From the NCBI GenBank assembly GCA_045643765.1, contig JAZRFS010000193.1:1-36049 (forward strand): 36,049 bases of DNA. The letters run 5' to 3'. The position numbers and the translations under genes are program-made. The stretch is from Eubacteriales bacterium (GTDB lineage: Bacteria; Bacillota; Clostridia; Oscillospirales; CAG-272). Position 1 is the stretch's first letter. Every line of letters begins with the position of its first letter. Shown here in pieces: positions 737 through 6,538 of the stretch. The notes beneath the pieces are model-generated. The model was not told where the DNA came from and did not search any database. It worked only from the letters and a program-made list of their open reading frames with translations.

Positions 737-1072
737 TCAAAGCTCCACCACGGTCACACCGTGGTTGGAAACACGAAGCAGAGGCTCTAAATCTCGGCAT
801 TTATTTTTAAGGGCAAGGGCATCAAAATTGAACAGAGTGAAGTCCTCACCGAAGATCACCTGCTTTACCTTGCCGCCACGCTCCTGGGCTTTGAGCCATT
901 GGCGCGCCTTCTGGCAGATGGCTCCACCCTTTCCCGTGCTGCCGTAGCCATGTACGATCAGCACCACGTCGTATTTATCGCGCTTCAAGCGCGTGATAGA
1001 GTCCTGTAAATAGCGCATCGCGTCTGCCACGATGGGCATGTCCTCTTTGATGTTGATTTCGGTATATCTCAT
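737..1072 (-). CDS. Stand-alone Smr (small MutS-related) domain protein, 111 aa, divergent N-terminal motif
   Basis: The ORF track protein contains VVLIVHGYGSTGKGGAICQKARQWL (Smr HGxG core) and a C-terminal NHGVTVVEL strand, and aligns by eye to E. coli SmrB/MutS2 Smr domains. A GGAGG RBS sits directly after the upstream rSAM stop. Confidence 0.75.
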   Translation of the reverse strand: MRYTEINIKEDMPIVADAMRYLQDSITRLKRDKYDVVLIVHGYGSTGKGGAICQKARQWLKAQERGGKVKQVIFGEDFTLFNFDALALKNKCRDLEPLLRVSNHGVTVVEL

Positions 1073-1081
1073 AAATCCTCC

Positions 1082-2455
1082 TCAAAAGATGATCTCAAAT
1101 GGCAGTTTTTCGGGTTCACAACACGCCACGTCATTTTCAAATTGCTCGTACGTATATCCTCTTTCGAAATATGAGACGGATTTCACGTCATAATAATCCT
1201 TTTGCGTCATCATCAAGCGAGAAATGGCACGGCAAATCTTTTTAGCAGCTTTGCTGTCTATTTCATCACTCAAATCAAGATCCACAAAACCATGGTCGTT
1301 CACAACATACCCATCCGGCACTCTCGCACCTTGCTCAAGCAGATCTTCCAGCAATCCGCTTCCCTTGTAATACACAAGACTGCTTGCCGCAACGCCTTTG
1401 ATAAGATGCCTGTGCTTTTTTAGCCAGCGCACCGTTTCCTCAACCGTTTCATTTGTTTCTCCTGCAAAAAGCAAAATGTTAAGCTTTACCCACACGTTAT
1501 GCTTTTGACATTCTTCTAAAATTTTCAGCGCCCTTTCAAGATATTTTCCCGGGCATTTCGTTTTGTTCATTTTCAAAAGCTGTGTCGGGCTCGCACTTTC
1601 CAATCCGATATCCAATATTTTCAATCCGGTGGCGGCAAGCTTGCCAATCATTTCTATCGGAACACTTTCCACTCTTGTGGTGCAGCGCCACGAAGTGATT
1701 TTTTGGCGCTTTTTCATCTCTTTTACAAGCTCTTCGCACCACGCCTTGTTAAAATGAAAATGAGGTGCTTCGAGATAAACCGAATAATTGCCGTATAGGT
1801 TATCTAAATAGTCGAGCTCTCGCATTACACTTTGAACCGATTTGTTTTGCAAGCGCTTGTTTTTGCCATCTGCACAAAAAGCACACCCCGAGCCACAGCC
1901 GCGCGAAACTTCAATGCTCGGCTGATAAAGCTTGTAGTCAAGCAACAGCTCGTAATTCAAATGTTCAAAGCAACACGTAGCACCGTCTTCCACAAGCTCG
2001 CTCTTTTCCGGGCAAAAGCGCTCTGCCATCTTCTTTTCTCCGAAGCCCTCAATGATCTCGTCTACGTATTTCAGTTTATCTTTCACCCATTCGGCGTTAT
2101 TGTCTACGACCCAACGCCCGCCAACGATGATCTTTTTTCCGTATTTCTCCTTGGCGATCCGGCAAAATTCCGCGCACCACGTTACGGAATAGTAGCTTGG
2201 AATCGACAGCAAAAAGCACTCACATTCCTCCGATATGTCAATGCCCTCTTTTTCTATCCTTTCAAAGAGCGCTGGAGGCGATTTCTGATCTCCTTGGACA
2301 ACAAGCACATTCAGCCCCAAATTGTCGTGCAGTATGGTGGCAAGACCCAAAAGTCCGTAATTCAAGTAACGAATACGGCCTTTTATGAGGTCCGTGCCTT
2401 TTTTGTAATCATACTGCCCCGCCGACACTGCAATAATTTTCTTAATAATAGACAT
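1082..2455 (-). CDS. B12-binding-domain radical SAM protein (class B rSAM), 457 aa
   Basis: The radical SAM CX3CX2C cluster motif is present in SRGCGSGCAFCADG. The N-terminal ~140 aa form a Rossmann-like region (KKIIVGGRWV) typical of the cobalamin-binding domain. No Cys-rich SPASM/twitch tail is present. AAGGAG RBS before the ATG. Confidence 0.88.
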   Translation of the reverse strand: MSIIKKIIAVSAGQYDYKKGTDLIKGRIRYLNYGLLGLATILHDNLGLNVLVVQGDQKSPPALFERIEKEGIDISEECECFLLSIPSYYSVTWCAEFCRIAKEKYGKKIIVGGRWVVDNNAEWVKDKLKYVDEIIEGFGEKKMAERFCPEKSELVEDGATCCFEHLNYELLLDYKLYQPSIEVSRGCGSGCAFCADGKNKRLQNKSVQSVMRELDYLDNLYGNYSVYLEAPHFHFNKAWCEELVKEMKKRQKITSWRCTTRVESVPIEMIGKLAATGLKILDIGLESASPTQLLKMNKTKCPGKYLERALKILEECQKHNVWVKLNILLFAGETNETVEETVRWLKKHRHLIKGVAASSLVYYKGSGLLEDLLEQGARVPDGYVVNDHGFVDLDLSDEIDSKAAKKICRAISRLMMTQKDYYDVKSVSYFERGYTYEQFENDVACCEPEKLPFEIIF

Positions 2456-2742
2456 TTTTCTCCTTTCTCAAAATAAGCTCACTAAAATTCAACAAAGACG
2501 TTCAAATCGACAGAAGAAAAAAGCAAACCTCCTTACGACAGATTGTGAAAAGGACAAAAAAAGTCTGCAATCCTTCGATCGCAGACGCTTAATACCAAAA
2601 ATGAAGACAGCTTCCCCATTGGTTAAATGCCTGCGACAAAAAGACTCAACAAAAGCATGGTGGAGATACTGCAAAGTCTGTCAGGTTTGCAGTAGTGCCT
2701 CCCGGATTGCCGAAGCAACCGCTTAAGTCGCTATTTACTTGT
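2456..2742 (-). promoter_or_regulatory. Long structured 5' leader of the rSAM-Smr operon (riboswitch-like or attenuator, class unassigned)
   Basis: About 290 nt separate the consensus promoter from the ATG. Closing helix: GCGAC (2727-2731) pairs with GTCGC (2633-2637). It encloses a UUCG-tetraloop hairpin (2705-2720) and a 7-bp hairpin CTGCAAA/TTTGCAG (2669-2692) extended by GGAGG/TCTCC. A terminator follows. Confidence 0.55.
2556..2588 (-). terminator. Intrinsic terminator inside the rSAM 5' leader (attenuator)
   Basis: Minus strand reads GTCTGC-gatcgaaggatt-GCAGAC followed by TTTTTTT. It lies ~100 nt upstream of the rSAM ATG and downstream of the promoter. Confidence 0.7.
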
Positions 2743-2748
2743 ACACTC

Positions 2749-2777
2749 ATTATAACACGAGCTTTTCCCCTTGTCAA
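2749..2777 (-). promoter_or_regulatory. Sigma-70/SigA-type promoter of the rSAM-Smr operon
   Basis: Minus strand reads TTGACA, a 17-nt spacer and TATAAT, with an extended TGn (gTGtTATAAT). Both hexamers match the consensus perfectly. Confidence 0.75.
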
Positions 2778-2950
2778 TACACTTTTGGAAAATTATGGAA
2801 ATTTTGTCGTTCGGTAGCCTTTACAACGACTGCTACGCGTACCTAAAAGAAAAAATGTCCGTCCCTTTTCTATCATTTTTCTGACATTTTTCCAAATAAA
2901 AGGGACGAAACGGGGTGATTTTGCCCATTTTTCGGAGTAAACTGTGACGA

Positions 2951-3028
2951 GGAGGGACAATATGGCGATGGTCGAAATCTCGTAGCTGTTAACGCGGCGC
3001 GTGGGTTCAAATCCCACCTTCTCCGCCA
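2951..3028 (+). tRNA. tRNA-Ser-like gene, apparently degenerate (possible CGA anticodon; D-arm region shortened)
   Basis: The 3' two-thirds is clearly tRNA-Ser-like: variable arm GCTG-TTAACG-CGGC, T-arm GTGGG-TTCAAAT-CCCAC, acceptor 3' strand CTTCTCC, discriminator G and encoded CCA (3026-3028). The 5' strand GGAGGGA pairs only imperfectly. The anticodon stem has a mismatch and I could not fold a normal D-arm by hand. Confidence 0.45.
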
Positions 3029-3034
3029 AGCACT

Positions 3035-3071
3035 GGCGCAGCACATTTTGTGTTGCGCCTTTTGCATTTTT
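3035..3071 (+). terminator. Intrinsic terminator downstream of the tRNA-Ser-like gene
   Basis: 10-bp stem GGCGCAGCAC-atttt-GTGTTGCGCC followed by TTTTGCATTTTT. Confidence 0.8.
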
Positions 3072-3091
3072 AAGACTAGATTTTGCCCGTA

Positions 3092-3120
3092 TTTACAAAT
3101 GCTAATATATGTGCTATAAT
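3092..3120 (+). promoter_or_regulatory. Promoter of the plus-strand four-gene operon
   Basis: TTTACA, a 17-nt spacer and TATAAT with an extended TGn (gTGcTATAAT). A second, similar -10 box (TGcTACAAT) lies at 3203-3212. Confidence 0.6.
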
Positions 3121-3242
3121 AACCTTACTCCCACTCTCACTTAACTTTTTGAAACTAATAACCCAAAATACATTTTGAGTGCATTCCATTATTTTTTTGC
3201 ATGTGCTACAATTTAGACACCGACAAAACAGGAGGCCCTCAA

Positions 3243-3560
3243 ATGACAATCAAAATTCTCTGCAAAATTACCGAACAAGGCACCCATTCCTTCTTCCTGA
3301 AAAAAGATCACACGGACTACTATCTTTTTTCTCAAAATTATCGCAAAGGCGTGCACAAGTATTACGCCCGTTCCGTTCCTTTCAACGAAGCAATTGACTT
3401 CTCCAGATCTAAGCAAGACTCCGCTATACTTCGCACTATGGAGAAAATCAGAACCCATGCAAAATATGTTGAAAAGCAGTACAACATCATTATTTGTCAA
3501 AAAAGCCAAAAACGTAGAAACATTCATCCATTTGATTTCAATGATCGTTTCTATGCTTAA
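3243..3560 (+). CDS. Small conserved hypothetical protein (105 aa from the RBS-supported ATG)
   Basis: An AGGAGG RBS 7 nt upstream of ATG 3243 makes the track start at 3201 unlikely. Sequence begins MTIKILCKITEQGTHSFFLKKDHTDYYLFSQNYRKGV..., with a basic tail KSQKRRN. I recognise no domain. Confidence 0.7.
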   Translation: MTIKILCKITEQGTHSFFLKKDHTDYYLFSQNYRKGVHKYYARSVPFNEAIDFSRSKQDSAILRTMEKIRTHAKYVEKQYNIIICQKSQKRRNIHPFDFNDRFYA

Positions 3561-3572
3561 TCGGAGGAAATC

Positions 3573-4688
3573 ATGGAAATACGAAATTTCATTTATAGCT
3601 TTTCATTAGATCCTAAAGCAACGGGAAGCAAAATCAAAAATCTCAGAAAATCTAAAAAAATGACAGCCGAAAAGCTCGCAGAAACATTACTTTGCTCCGT
3701 GAAAACCGTCTCTTCCTGGGAAACTGGCACACGTTTCCCCTCCCTAGATGCACTTGTGGATCTGGCCAACCTTTTTGACATAAGTGTTCACTCTTTGATG
3801 CTTCCGTTTGATAACTGTTCAGAATCCCCCATCAAAAGCCCTAATCCTAACGATTATTCCGTTTTTGACTCCGCTTATTCAATTGGCCTGACCGACGACG
3901 AGATAACTCAAACCCTTTTTATAAGAGAAGAATATTTGATCCAACGACTGCTTTGCGATGTATTTACCAACCAAAATCAATGCGAATTGGAAGCACTCGC
4001 CTATGCGTTACAACGCACACCCGTTCGTGAACTCCCCTCCCTAAAAAATAACACCGCCGATGCTTTTTGGAAATTTAAAAAAGAGCATTTTTATCATTCA
4101 CAAACGGCATCCATATTATTTAACCGCATTCTTCGCGGCGAATGCTTTCCTAACACCTTGAACGCGATGGATCTATTTGAAAAATGCGTGTTTTTAACTA
4201 TGCTTTGCTATTTCCCCGAATTTCGGAATTGGGACTGTGCAAAGATGCTATATGAAACCGGTGCACGCTTTATAGATTGTCAATTCTCCTCCAATGCCGA
4301 AAAAATTAAGCAGTTTTCCCTTAAGAAAGAGCAAGAGCGCCTATTTAACGTTCACGCCGCCACCATTACATCCGAAGAAGAACTATTATGCTTTTGGGGC
4401 CTAGACCCACATATGAGCGAAGAACGAAAAAACAAGTGGTTGGGCTGGTTAGAGACACCGAGATATAAAGACAATCCTGATTATTATGATAAAAAAATTC
4501 TCCGCATGGTCACTGATAATTGCGGAGACCCAGAAGAACGCAAAACGTTGGCAAAATATTATTCCGTTTTTGATTTCATCATTGACACCGTGGAAAGCCT
4601 GGATGATTTTGCGAAACGCCGCGTGGAAGCAGATATGTGCTTTGAAGAATATATTGAACTTTTGTTGGAAAGAGGTGCGGTCTCATGA
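3573..4688 (+). CDS. XRE-family HTH protein with a ~300-aa uncharacterised C-terminal domain (371 aa)
   Basis: N-terminal HTH_3 signature IKNLRKSKKMTAEKLAETLLCSVKTVSSWETGTRFPSLDALVDLANLFDISVHSLM. GGAGG RBS. The stop overlaps the next start (ATGA at 4685-4688). Confidence 0.85.
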   Translation: MEIRNFIYSFSLDPKATGSKIKNLRKSKKMTAEKLAETLLCSVKTVSSWETGTRFPSLDALVDLANLFDISVHSLMLPFDNCSESPIKSPNPNDYSVFDSAYSIGLTDDEITQTLFIREEYLIQRLLCDVFTNQNQCELEALAYALQRTPVRELPSLKNNTADAFWKFKKEHFYHSQTASILFNRILRGECFPNTLNAMDLFEKCVFLTMLCYFPEFRNWDCAKMLYETGARFIDCQFSSNAEKIKQFSLKKEQERLFNVHAATITSEEELLCFWGLDPHMSEERKNKWLGWLETPRYKDNPDYYDKKILRMVTDNCGDPEERKTLAKYYSVFDFIIDTVESLDDFAKRRVEADMCFEEYIELLLERGAVS

Positions 4689-5611
4689 TAAATAAAAAAG
4701 TTTTAAGTCATATGGCAACCGGGCGATTTATCAGAGAAAAACGCACAGAGTTGAATCTCACCCAGGACGAGCTCGCGCTAAAACTCGGTATCACCAAAAA
4801 CGCCATTTCCAACTGGGAAAACGCAAACGCATTGGTAGACGTGAAGTATCTGATCCCGCTCAGCAATATTTTCAGCGTTAAAGTTGATGAGCTCCTATTT
4901 CCGAATACCCTTACCCCAAACGAAAATTCTTATTCCGATATCAGCACGCAATTCATAAAAATGACCCGCTTTGAGATCACGGATCCCAAACTGTGCAAAA
5001 AATTATTGGATATGTTTGTGGATTGCAAGATACTTCTTACCAACCTGATAAAAGAATACCAGTCCACGCGCGACGAAAAGATACTGCTTCAAATTTTACA
5101 AGAAAACAAATTCGGTTTTGGTTTCTTCCGCTTTGAAGAACCACTTGACCGCGCAGCCCTGGAAAACACTTTAGACAAAACGTTCTCCGTAGAGGACCAA
5201 TTACAAACGATATGGGAGCCCTTCTTGTCTAGTAGTCAAGCCTATGCAGAAGAAATCAATGAAAAAGGCATTCATGTCTCTCGCATTTTTTTAGATGAAG
5301 ATTATGTATACAATTATATAGAAACAAAAGACGGACGCGGACACGGCATGTCTTCCAACATCGCTATGGCAAACTTTATCTTTGATTTTGGCAACGAACG
5401 AATTTTCAGAAAATTCATCTCCACTTTCAGCCAAAAATACAAAAATGACATTCTGTTTAATTTGCATTATTTCATTAAAGAAACCAGAACTCATGCAATT
5501 CCCACTCACCAGGAACGCAAGGCCATGAAATATCTGCTTCGTGCCGGAGCAGAGCTTTGGGTAGACGGCGAAAATCAAACAAAGAAGCTTATGCTGTACG
5601 TGTTCAATTAG
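4685..5611 (+). CDS. XRE-family HTH protein with a ~240-aa uncharacterised C-terminal domain (308 aa)
   Basis: HTH_3 signature IREKRTELNLTQDELALKLGITKNAISNWENANALVDVKYLIPLSNIFSVKVDELL. Translationally coupled to the upstream XRE gene. Confidence 0.85.
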   Translation: MINKKVLSHMATGRFIREKRTELNLTQDELALKLGITKNAISNWENANALVDVKYLIPLSNIFSVKVDELLFPNTLTPNENSYSDISTQFIKMTRFEITDPKLCKKLLDMFVDCKILLTNLIKEYQSTRDEKILLQILQENKFGFGFFRFEEPLDRAALENTLDKTFSVEDQLQTIWEPFLSSSQAYAEEINEKGIHVSRIFLDEDYVYNYIETKDGRGHGMSSNIAMANFIFDFGNERIFRKFISTFSQKYKNDILFNLHYFIKETRTHAIPTHQERKAMKYLLRAGAELWVDGENQTKKLMLYVFN

Positions 5612-5623
5612 GAGTTATGGTAC

Positions 5624-6538
5624 ATGAATAAAACAGACATTTTATTCCCCCTCCGCAAGCAGTACAATAGTCATTGTTGGCGTTGCAAAAGCCCCATTTC
5701 TTCCCTCTACTGTGAACAATGCAGTCACTGCAATTGGTATGTTTGCACCGTTTGTGGTTCTTGTTACTTAGGACAATGTACTTTTGCAACGTGTGGCTTT
5801 GATGAAAACGGTCTGCACCGCAATGGCACGAAATTTTCGGATAAAGGTTTTGATGTAAGAGGTTTCGACATCGAAGGTTTTGACCAATACGGTTATAATC
5901 AATACGGCTATGACCGCACCGGCTATGATAAACACGGTTATAACCGAAGCGGCTACGACCATGACGGGTTTGACAAATACGGTTACGATTGTGATGGATA
6001 TGACCGTAGCGGATTCGATTATGATGGCTATGATAGAGAGGGCTACAACAGCCGTGGATACGATCGCAACTTATTAAACCGCGATGGCTACAATCCAGCG
6101 GGTTTTGACAAAGACGGTTATGATAAAAACGGCTACAATAAGGATGGCTTTGATAGAAACGGTGTAAACCGTCAAGGCATTGACAAAAAAGGCCTTGATG
6201 CAGAATGGCGCAGTTTAATCAAGCGCAGGGTGGCTTATATAAGTGCAGGTAATAACATAAAAAAAGGAACTATAATTGACTGCTATATCCGAGCCCAAAC
6301 TTACTATGTTGACGTACAATTCGATGATGGTGTAATCTATCGCAAAATTGATTTCAACCACACTCGTTCCATAGGGATTTTAAAGTTTTTGATAAAGAAA
6401 TCAAAAGGCTACACTTATAAACAATTTGAAACCCCGCCCCATATGGGGCGTCTACTTTGTTTATTCTCCCTCCTCCAACACCTCGTCGGCGAGACTGCGC
6501 ATTGGAAGGTGCTGGCGGCATCCTACGTGGCACATTGA
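5624..6538 (+). CDS. Cys-rich zinc-ribbon protein with 24 G-[YF]-[DN]-x-x pentapeptide repeats and a small beta-rich C-terminal domain; the 3' tail is probably chimeric
   Basis: AGGAG RBS. The N-terminus has ten Cys in CxxC-type spacing (CWRC...CEQCSHC...CTVCGSC...C...C). Residues 75-194 are pentads in perfect register. The last ~36 aa read through the hairpin and antisense of an integrase remnant after an abrupt composition change at ~6430. Confidence 0.8.
   Translation: MNKTDILFPLRKQYNSHCWRCKSPISSLYCEQCSHCNWYVCTVCGSCYLGQCTFATCGFDENGLHRNGTKFSDKGFDVRGFDIEGFDQYGYNQYGYDRTGYDKHGYNRSGYDHDGFDKYGYDCDGYDRSGFDYDGYDREGYNSRGYDRNLLNRDGYNPAGFDKDGYDKNGYNKDGFDRNGVNRQGIDKKGLDAEWRSLIKRRVAYISAGNNIKKGTIIDCYIRAQTYYVDVQFDDGVIYRKIDFNHTRSIGILKFLIKKSKGYTYKQFETPPHMGRLLCLFSLLQHLVGETAHWKVLAASYVAH
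5846..6205 (+). repeat. Coding tandem repeat, 15-nt period (24 pentapeptide units)
   Basis: Units are GFDVR GFDIE GFDQY GYNQY GYDRT GYDKH GYNRS GYDHD GFDKY GYDCD GYDRS GFDYD GYDRE GYNSR GYDRN LLNRD GYNPA GFDKD GYDKN GYNKD GFDRN GVNRQ GIDKK GLDAE. Synonymous codons vary between units (ggt/ggc/gga/ggg, tat/tac, gat/gac). Confidence 0.9.

Follow-up and report, generated by a model that had tools for sequence, protein, structure and literature searches.

In a 36,049-nucleotide stretch of DNA from a Eubacteriales bacterium of the Oscillospirales lineage CAG-272 (contig JAZRFS010000193.1 of assembly GCA_045643765.1), referred to here as the window, we analysed a gene whose product contains 24 consecutive five-residue units of the form G-[YF]-[DN]-x-x. 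This pentad array is genuine and kept by selection and, judged from sequence comparisons, belongs to a widespread, barely annotated Gly-aromatic-Asp/Asn repeat family. It spans residues 75–194 (positions 5846–6205) of a 304-residue protein encoded by an open reading frame (ORF) on the forward strand (5624..6538). Across the family the pentad is an evolutionary unit whose copy number is labile between close relatives, and the array is placed between end domains unrelated to one another, in proteins of the cytoplasm, the periplasm and the cell surface. The role that we favour, with the case for and against it about evenly poised, is that of an elongated, length-adjustable spacer or ruler between protein domains rather than an active site.

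All 24 units are in register, with no insertion or deletion (indel) between them. Position 3 is Asp or Asn in 24 of 24 units, position 1 is Gly in 23 (the sole exception is LLNRD) and position 2 is Tyr or Phe in 20, the others having Leu, Val, Ile and Leu. These counts are those given by an earlier reading of the same DNA (the original prediction), and its coordinates, 5795–6205, are exact, residue 58 starting at 5795 and residue 194 ending at 6205. The longest in-register G-x-[DN] run is 15+8 units, compared with 4 in 20,000 shuffles of the same protein, and such runs never exceeded 2 in the other five reading frames of the window. In composition, the array is 19% Gly, 28% Asp plus Asn and 20% Tyr plus Phe, with a net charge of −9 over 120 residues.

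The conserved residues are encoded by mixed synonymous codons, with Gly as GGC (10), GGT (9), GGA (3) and GGG (1), Tyr as TAT (7) and TAC (6), and Asp as GAT (9) and GAC (8). The 15-nucleotide units have a mean pairwise identity of 54%, and Tandem Repeats Finder detected only a weak 15/45-nucleotide periodicity with 60–72% match. Together, these observations indicate that the pentad periodicity is kept at the protein level, as had been proposed from the codon variation between units. An array generated by recent DNA duplication or slippage is ruled out by the low identity of the units and the weak tandem-repeat matches.

Repeat family, partner domains and copy number

Searches of very large protein collections placed the array in an extensive family. 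There were 294 matches in a 90%-clustered database of 5.8 billion clustered proteins, and a phmmer search with residues 58–200 against 1.84 billion representatives returned 3,090 matches at E ≤ 1e-3, of which 1,199 reach E ≤ 1e-10 and 230 reach E ≤ 1e-30; the longest matched family protein has 7,692 residues. Looking for other (G[YF][DN]xx)n proteins and their domain partners, as had been suggested, thus yields about 3,090 protein clusters in Bacteria and Archaea with unrelated end domains. Among contigs from one genome per species, loci with the repeat were found in Bacillota (Faecalibacterium, Ruminococcus, Oscillospiraceae, Clostridiaceae and Syntrophomonas), in Gastranaerophilales, Legionellales and other Gammaproteobacteria, Ignavibacteria, Elusimicrobiota, Bacteroidota (Muribaculaceae) and Campylobacterota, and in the archaeal groups Nitrosopumilus, Thermococci and Methanofastidiosum. 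The source records of the family proteins name all of them 'hypothetical protein', and a literature search found no paper for the Pfam family PF25296 (discussed below), for 'decapeptide repeat' with solenoid or for the literal repeat strings. No exact-sequence record exists for the window pentad protein or for two other window proteins, only one gut-metagenome run contains 6% of the sequence words and, with a best match of 47–52% identity, there were no close relatives in which repeat number could be compared between strains.

Position frequencies computed from 12,715 pentads give the family consensus G-[YF]-[DN]-[RK]-[DEN]. Position 1 is Gly in 93% of pentads, position 2 is Tyr (52%) or Phe (33%; 85% together), position 3 is Asp (56%) or Asn (34%; 90% together), position 4 is Arg (33%) or Lys (27%; 60% together) and position 5 is Asp (25%), Glu (18%) or Asn (16%; 59% together). 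In-register runs without an indel extend to 216 units; the run of this length (1,080 residues) lies in a 3,383-residue Gastranaerophilales protein (L003, 3199–13350). A local 20-residue super-period, GFNRQ-GYDKD-GFNKD-GFDAE, is seen in L003 and a 10-residue one in another locus, L007; both look like local duplication history. Autocorrelation of the family pentads showed no lag-2 or lag-4 signal and only a faint lag-3 signal, and with indels also favouring single pentads, a super-period of two, three or four pentads was rejected.

The array in the window is preceded by a second recurrent element, a 17-residue punctuation motif, GF[ND]xxG[ILV]H[RK]NGTx[YF]D[DE]x, of which 109 copies were found in 63 of 301 family proteins. 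The motif moves the pentad register by +2, and the pentad preceding it almost always has Phe (90%). Residues 58–67 had been described as two degenerate units, GFDEN and GLHRN. Those sequences are present, but they are not units of the array, being off its register by +2; followed by the seven residues GTKFSDK, they make up a single copy of the punctuation motif (residues 58–74).

The partner domains of the array are diverse. They include TrbI/VirB10, VWA with OmpA-type C termini, TPS, CWB2, LRR_5, Lcl_C, UvrD helicase, RNase_T, Colicin_E5, HNH, DarT, Amidoligase_2, DUF4145, DnaJ and PRTase. About 30% of family proteins have an N-terminal hydrophobic segment, so the module serves both within and outside the cell. 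In DotG-like proteins (L005, L016, L018, L025 and P0047), the array lies between an N-terminal membrane helix and the outer-membrane TrbI domain. Some of the positions taken by the array in the family have to bridge the periplasm. The DotG-like arrays, which come from Legionellales and Gammaproteobacteria metagenome-assembled genomes, are interrupted by Cys-bracketed loops of the form C-N-R-[EQ]-G-L-D-x-x-G-x-P-C. Two loci from Kapaibacterium/Ignavibacteria (L006 and L008) encode lipoproteins of about 995 residues that combine a vWA domain, about 70 GFDxN pentads and an OmpA-type peptidoglycan-binding C terminus, and these GFDxN arrays carry many HxxGS punctuation motifs.

Copy number changes in steps of one unit. 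Indels between relatives peak at 5, 10, 15, 20 and 25 residues and decay monotonically, with 5 residues the commonest, and one pair of proteins (P0044 and P0068) that is 98% identical outside the array differs by 9 pentads.

Predicted conformation and competing explanations

AlphaFold2 (AF2) predicted an ordered array with high confidence. The full protein, modelled with a 120-sequence alignment, has a mean pLDDT (predicted local distance difference test) score of 87.6, with 94–98 across the array, and residues 58–200 modelled alone reach 97.0 (96.6–97.0 in five models). The conformation is regular, in line with the original prediction, but it is not the quadrilateral β-helix which that prediction had envisaged for these residues. 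In both models, DSSP assigns almost no helix or strand in the array, and the only bridges (Y121/D127, F176/N182 and V181/D187) run from i to i+6, linking position 2 of one unit to position 3 of the next. A Foldseek search with the repeat-only model returned no PDB entry at E ≤ 10 and, from BFVD, no meaningful match.

We propose that the array would fold, perhaps only when in context, as a regular, elongated structure. In it, tight three-residue turns of [RK]-[DEN]-Gly would connect two-residue [YF]-[DN] segments, and successive pentads would pack against one another. Asn-Gly and Asp-Gly are classic tight-turn formers. With the pentads stacked in an elongated regular fold, length would scale with copy number, and the array could act as a spacer, stalk or molecular ruler; in the window protein, it may hold a two-zinc Cys-rich ribbon apart from a Tudor/SH3-like barrel in the cytoplasm. 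A more ambitious version, which we advance only tentatively, is that the G-[YF]-[DN]-[RK]-[DEN] array represents a fold without a solved representative, a continuous chain in which each pentad makes up one structural step and strands of two residues alternate with Asx/Gly turns of three. Bacteria and Archaea would then employ it as a general ruler tuned by copy number, among others in type IV secretion proteins of the DotG type, in lipoproteins anchored by OmpA and in giant surface proteins.

Several points weigh against an ordered spacer. The ribbon geometry proposed here is derived from DSSP positions only, a ribbon of one pentad per step would have no obvious buried core, and Foldseek found no solved analogue that could validate the fold. 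AF2 is known to give confident but unrealistic solenoid models for repeat sequences (PMC11795689). The hydropathy of the array (H = 0.318) falls well below the Uversky charge–hydropathy boundary of 0.440, on the disordered side, whereas the adjacent barrel (0.479) and the consensus of classical pentapeptide-repeat proteins (PRPs; 0.508) are both above it. PF25296, the Pfam model for the same type of pentad, does not match the window array even at E ≤ 10. The window gene lacks the N-terminal barrel and acidic tail found in longer homologues and has a probable read-through tail (see below), so it may be a decaying copy, and neither gene neighbourhood nor experiment points to a role for the whole protein.

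It is possible, though we lean against it, that the array is instead an intrinsically disordered Tyr/Arg/Asp 'sticker-spacer', acting as a flexible tether or a self-associating, condensate-forming region, and that the AF2 model is an artefact of over-confidence on repeats; a disordered low-complexity segment was the alternative that the original prediction had named. The charge–hydropathy value, the low-complexity composition, the near absence of regular secondary structure in DSSP and the lack of an analogue in the PDB or BFVD would all fit such a region, AF2 over-confidence on repeats is documented (PMC11795689), and a tether would tolerate pentads being freely gained and lost one at a time. 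However, Gly, the aromatic residue and Asp/Asn are conserved at 85–93% over 12,715 pentads from Bacteria and Archaea, which is tighter than composition-driven disorder usually needs; registers extend to 216 units without one indel; and the 17-residue punctuation motif is conserved and recurrent. The window repeats are also diverged (54% nucleotide identity, with variable positions 4–5), unlike the near-perfect repeats of the AF2-artefact cases (PMC11795689), and the Kyte–Doolittle scale under-weights Tyr. An unlikely alternative, which could coexist with an ordered spacer, is that the array binds a ligand, either Ca2+ or another cation through Asp/Asn and Gly, as in a β-roll or TSP3-like repeat, or cell-wall glycans through a Tyr/Phe ladder resembling those of choline-binding or CWB-type proteins. 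The invariant Asp/Asn does adjoin Gly, and the array occurs with the CWB2, TPS, LRR_5 and Lcl_C surface domains and in vWA–OmpA lipoproteins, at the place where other OmpA-family proteins have Ca2+-binding TSP3 linkers. Cation-dependent folding would, moreover, reconcile the disorder-like composition with the ordered model. Yet a signal peptide is absent from the window protein, which bears a cytoplasmic zinc ribbon, many partner domains are those of cytoplasmic enzymes (helicase, RNase_T, DarT and PRTase), the Ca2+-binding motifs GGxGxDxUx and DxDxDG are absent, Arg or Lys follows Asp in 60% of units, and the Pfam models for Ca-binding and cell-wall repeats are unmatched.

The original prediction favoured a further structure, a non-canonical quadrilateral β-helix with four pentads per turn, exactly six turns and an acidic, DNA-mimicking surface as in Qnr and MfpA, which we consider very improbable. 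As in classical PRPs (Qnr, MfpA and Rfr; PF00805), the units are five residues long and each contains a conserved Asp/Asn and a single hydrophobic residue. The array also has a net negative charge, the 20-residue super-period of L003 would suit a four-pentad turn, and the DotG repeat region is matched both by the profile of the family and by an idealised PRP consensus, which is a weak and indirect bridge. In the PRP consensus [STAV][DN][LF][STR][G], the centre residue i (Leu or Phe) and the small residue at i−2 both face inward. The pentads fit this motif in neither register: with [DN] as i−1, residue i is Arg or Lys in 60% of the 12,715 pentads and, with [YF] as i, i−1 is Gly (93%) and i−2 is Asp, Glu or Asn (59%). 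The Pfam pentapeptide models (PF00805, PF13599 and PF13576) matched neither the whole protein at E ≤ 1 nor residues 58–200 at E ≤ 10, nor any of 194 scanned relatives. No solved PRP was matched by the window protein with phmmer or by the family profile with hmmsearch, although an idealised A[DN]LSG consensus, used as a positive control, matched 27 PRP chains, including QnrB1 and MfpA. With Foldseek, for which there was no positive control, the repeat-only model had 0 PDB matches at E ≤ 10 and no PRP was among the matches of the full model. The 20-residue coils of Rfr are likewise unsupported, and with them the six turns of four pentads, as the bridges of the predicted models are i to i+6 with almost no strand, there is no family-wide lag-4 signal, and indels occur as single pentads rather than in 20-residue steps. 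An acidic surface is at odds with the Arg or Lys that occupies position 4 in 60% of pentads, positions 4–5 being zwitterionic, and with a net charge of only −9 over 120 residues; DNA mimicry would be meaningless in the periplasmic, surface and secreted proteins in which the same repeat is frequent. A canonical PRP was rejected on motif register, hidden Markov models (HMMs), the PDB sequence search with its positive control, and Foldseek, and a DNA mimic is disfavoured with it. The array is not a four-sided Rfr β-helix, and nothing points to DNA mimicry. The part of the original prediction that called the repeat unlike classical A[DN]LXX units is borne out by the register, HMM and sequence comparisons.

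Should the array be folded, thousands of prokaryotic proteins would contain a solenoid-like or ribbon architecture that is new and lacks a PDB analogue. It would also offer a handle on the unresolved repeat region of DotG-type secretion proteins, and rods with a length fixed by the number of pentads would be of use in protein engineering. Should it be disordered, it would provide a clean natural test case of AF2 over-confidence on diverged repeats (pLDDT 97–98).

Protein architecture and genomic surroundings

The features of the window gene and its surroundings are collected in the table below. We compared the protein with seven homologues of the same architecture (P0002–P0006, P0008 and P0030; together with the window protein, alignment A1), in which a Cys-rich ribbon, the punctuation motif, pentads in varying number, a GLDxxW junction and a small C-terminal β-barrel follow one another in this order. 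Eight cysteines of the ribbon (C18, C21, C33, C36, C41, C44, C47 and C52) are invariant in the alignment, and comparison of this region with PDB sequences gave weak LIM/zinc-finger matches at most. The best Foldseek matches of the full model were Tudor domains aligned to the C-terminal barrel (probability 0.97–1.0, with weak E values of about 0.07–0.2), suggesting a Tudor/SH3-like shape for the modelled barrel. In most of the homologues there is also a barrel of about 50 residues at the N terminus, and in some an acidic tail at the C terminus, both of which the window protein lacks. An AGGAG sequence lies 9 nucleotides upstream of its ATG. Its sequence contains no N-terminal hydrophobic segment and no signal peptide, pointing to a cytoplasmic location.

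Features of the pentad-array gene and its surroundings in the window
Feature	Position	Strand	Basis or remark
Promoter-like site (TTTACA, 17 nucleotides, TG-TATAAT)	3092..3120	+	Consensus match only; ahead of operon
Three upstream same-strand genes	3201..5611	+	119-residue protein and two XRE-type helix-turn-helix proteins
ORF, 304 residues	5624..6538	+	Zinc ribbon, punctuation motif, 24 pentads, small β-barrel, non-native tail (probable)
Cys-rich zinc-ribbon region, residues 18–57	5675..5794	+	Alignment A1; AF2 pLDDT 84–90
Punctuation motif, one copy, residues 58–74	5795..5845	+	GFDENGLHRNGTKFSDK; conserved in alignment A1
24 pentads, residues 75–194	5846..6205	+	Repeat counts, shuffles; AF2 pLDDT 94–98
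W196-containing linker helix and small β-barrel, residues 195–265	6206..6418	+	AF2 strands 202–265, pLDDT 92–98
Tail, residues 266–304 plus stop	6419..6538	+	pLDDT 45–70; in none of the A1 homologues
Terminator-like GC hairpin CGCCCCATATGGGGCG, then T-rich tail	6435..6450	+	Inside 3′ end of ORF

The C-terminal tail (residues 266–304) is probably non-native. The terminator-like hairpin within its coding sequence and about 70 nucleotides beyond are kept in another locus (L040, 8400–8530; 77% identity over 70 nucleotides), where they are non-coding and come after the stop codon of a 68-residue gene. The last 40 or so codons of the window ORF therefore look like read-through of a terminator into the 3′ untranslated region, and the native stop codon seems to have been lost by a deletion.

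The C-terminal barrel also occurs alone, as a 60-residue stand-alone protein, P0268, encoded in L040 (8001–8183) and in L041–L043. P0268 shares 75% identity with the window copy (6250–6407) at the protein level and 76% at the DNA level, and it was the only match of a profile search with the barrel alone. Its gene lies directly 3′ of an AraC-type regulator; one of the full-architecture homologues, P0006, likewise follows an AraC regulator (L038).

The pentad gene is the last of a four-gene same-strand operon. The two genes immediately upstream encode XRE-type helix-turn-helix (HTH) proteins of 371 (3573–4688) and 308 (4685–5611) residues and overlap by 4 nucleotides; the two proteins are 30% identical in the HTH region only, and their long C-terminal parts match no family. 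The operon sits in a low-GC block (window positions of about 1000–6465; about 37–44% GC compared with 51–62% in the flanks) that also contains a B12-type radical-SAM gene on the reverse strand (1082–2455) and in which no integrase or recombinase was seen. For the window gene itself, a reduced and possibly decaying copy in this block, the practical consequence is small.

The operon neighbours of the window gene were found beside none of 36 homologous loci. Two long homologues, P0003 and P0004, each come after a protein of 315–340 residues, homologous between the two loci (L001, 6967–7989; L037, 140–1087; 55% identity). This protein, whose hydrophobic core is of the Gly-zipper kind, matches nothing in Pfam and is absent from the window; with the long homologue it may form a two-gene module. 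PADLOC and PHROGs gave no match for the pentad protein, and its neighbours matched through their HTH domains only. A defence, toxin–antitoxin or phage role was rejected on the empty PADLOC and PHROGs results for the pentad protein.

Comparison with known repeats and spacers

The closest catalogued repeat is PF25296, the 'Decapeptide repeat region', whose long in-register arrays are built of the same G-[YF]-[DN]-x-x pentad. A PF25296 member with GYNAA/GYDVN pentads (P0163, 90.2 bits against a gathering threshold of 45) was retrieved by phmmer with the window array at E = 2.8e-60 and aligns to it over 120 residues with 0 gaps at 40–45% identity (BLASTP 45%, E = 6e-31). Among the family proteins, 8 of 74 and 2 of 120 are also touched by the PF25296 model. 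The model itself, however, matches neither the window array nor the whole window protein even at E ≤ 10. The difference lies in positions 4–5, which are uncharged in the model (Ala, Val, Asn or Ser, as in GYNAA-GYDVN) and in the window are Arg or Lys followed by Asp, Glu or Asn. By these sequence comparisons, the window array is the charged [RK][DEN] form of a repeat type of which the Pfam model covers the uncharged form alone. Although PF25296 is named for a decapeptide, the family data contain no two-pentad unit, having no lag-2 signal and 5-residue indels as the commonest. No function or structure for PF25296 was found in records or literature, so the possibility raised in the original prediction, that the repeat would match an already described family of known function, holds for the catalogue entry but not for a function. 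The repeat type was already in Pfam; the subtype of the window lies outside the Pfam model, and the conformation predicted by AF2 has no solved analogue. Whether the array is folded or disordered, the PF25296 model misses the charged subtype, apparently the commoner one among the proteins collected here.

A second likeness is to DotG/IcmE of Legionella, whose repeats also vary in number and contain G-[FY]-[polar]. The position that the arrays take in DotG-like proteins, between membrane helix and TrbI domain, is occupied in L. pneumophila DotG by variable decapeptide repeats of its own (PMC6761968). Their motif is [KR]-x-A-G-[FY]-[STND]-x-x-x-[LI] (10.1101/2023.03.22.533729); the repeats do not form a classical β-helix in AlphaFold models (10.1101/2023.03.22.533729), and the region is unresolved in experimental structures (10.1101/2025.06.23.660953). 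The profile of the pentad family matches DotG residues 539–815 at E = 9e-10, which the shared period-10 G-[FY] and composition may explain, and the matches of the single window sequence to DotG (E = 0.11) and to the NCBIfam DotG model (E = 0.069) are both weak. The DotG unit spans 10 residues and its second half contains Leu/Ile and is similar to A[DN]LXX, whereas the window unit has 5 and no such half; within the window array, Ala precedes Gly in 1 of 24 units and there is no Leu or Ile five residues on. The window protein, unlike DotG, has neither a TrbI domain nor a membrane helix.

The array also differs from known Ca2+-binding repeats. Neither the RTX nonapeptide GGxGxDxUx nor a DxDxDG loop occurs in the window sequence, whose period is 5 with a single Gly in each unit, and none of the Pfam models for Ca-binding or cell-wall repeats matched the window protein or the array. 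Closer in role are three spacers that are unrelated to it in sequence, the Pro-rich region of VirB10, the repeats of CagY and the TSP3 linkers of OmpA proteins. The likeness is confined to role, and the window protein is a cytoplasmic one; like the pentad array, these spacers lie between anchoring and functional domains and vary in copy number between strains (PMC6761968).

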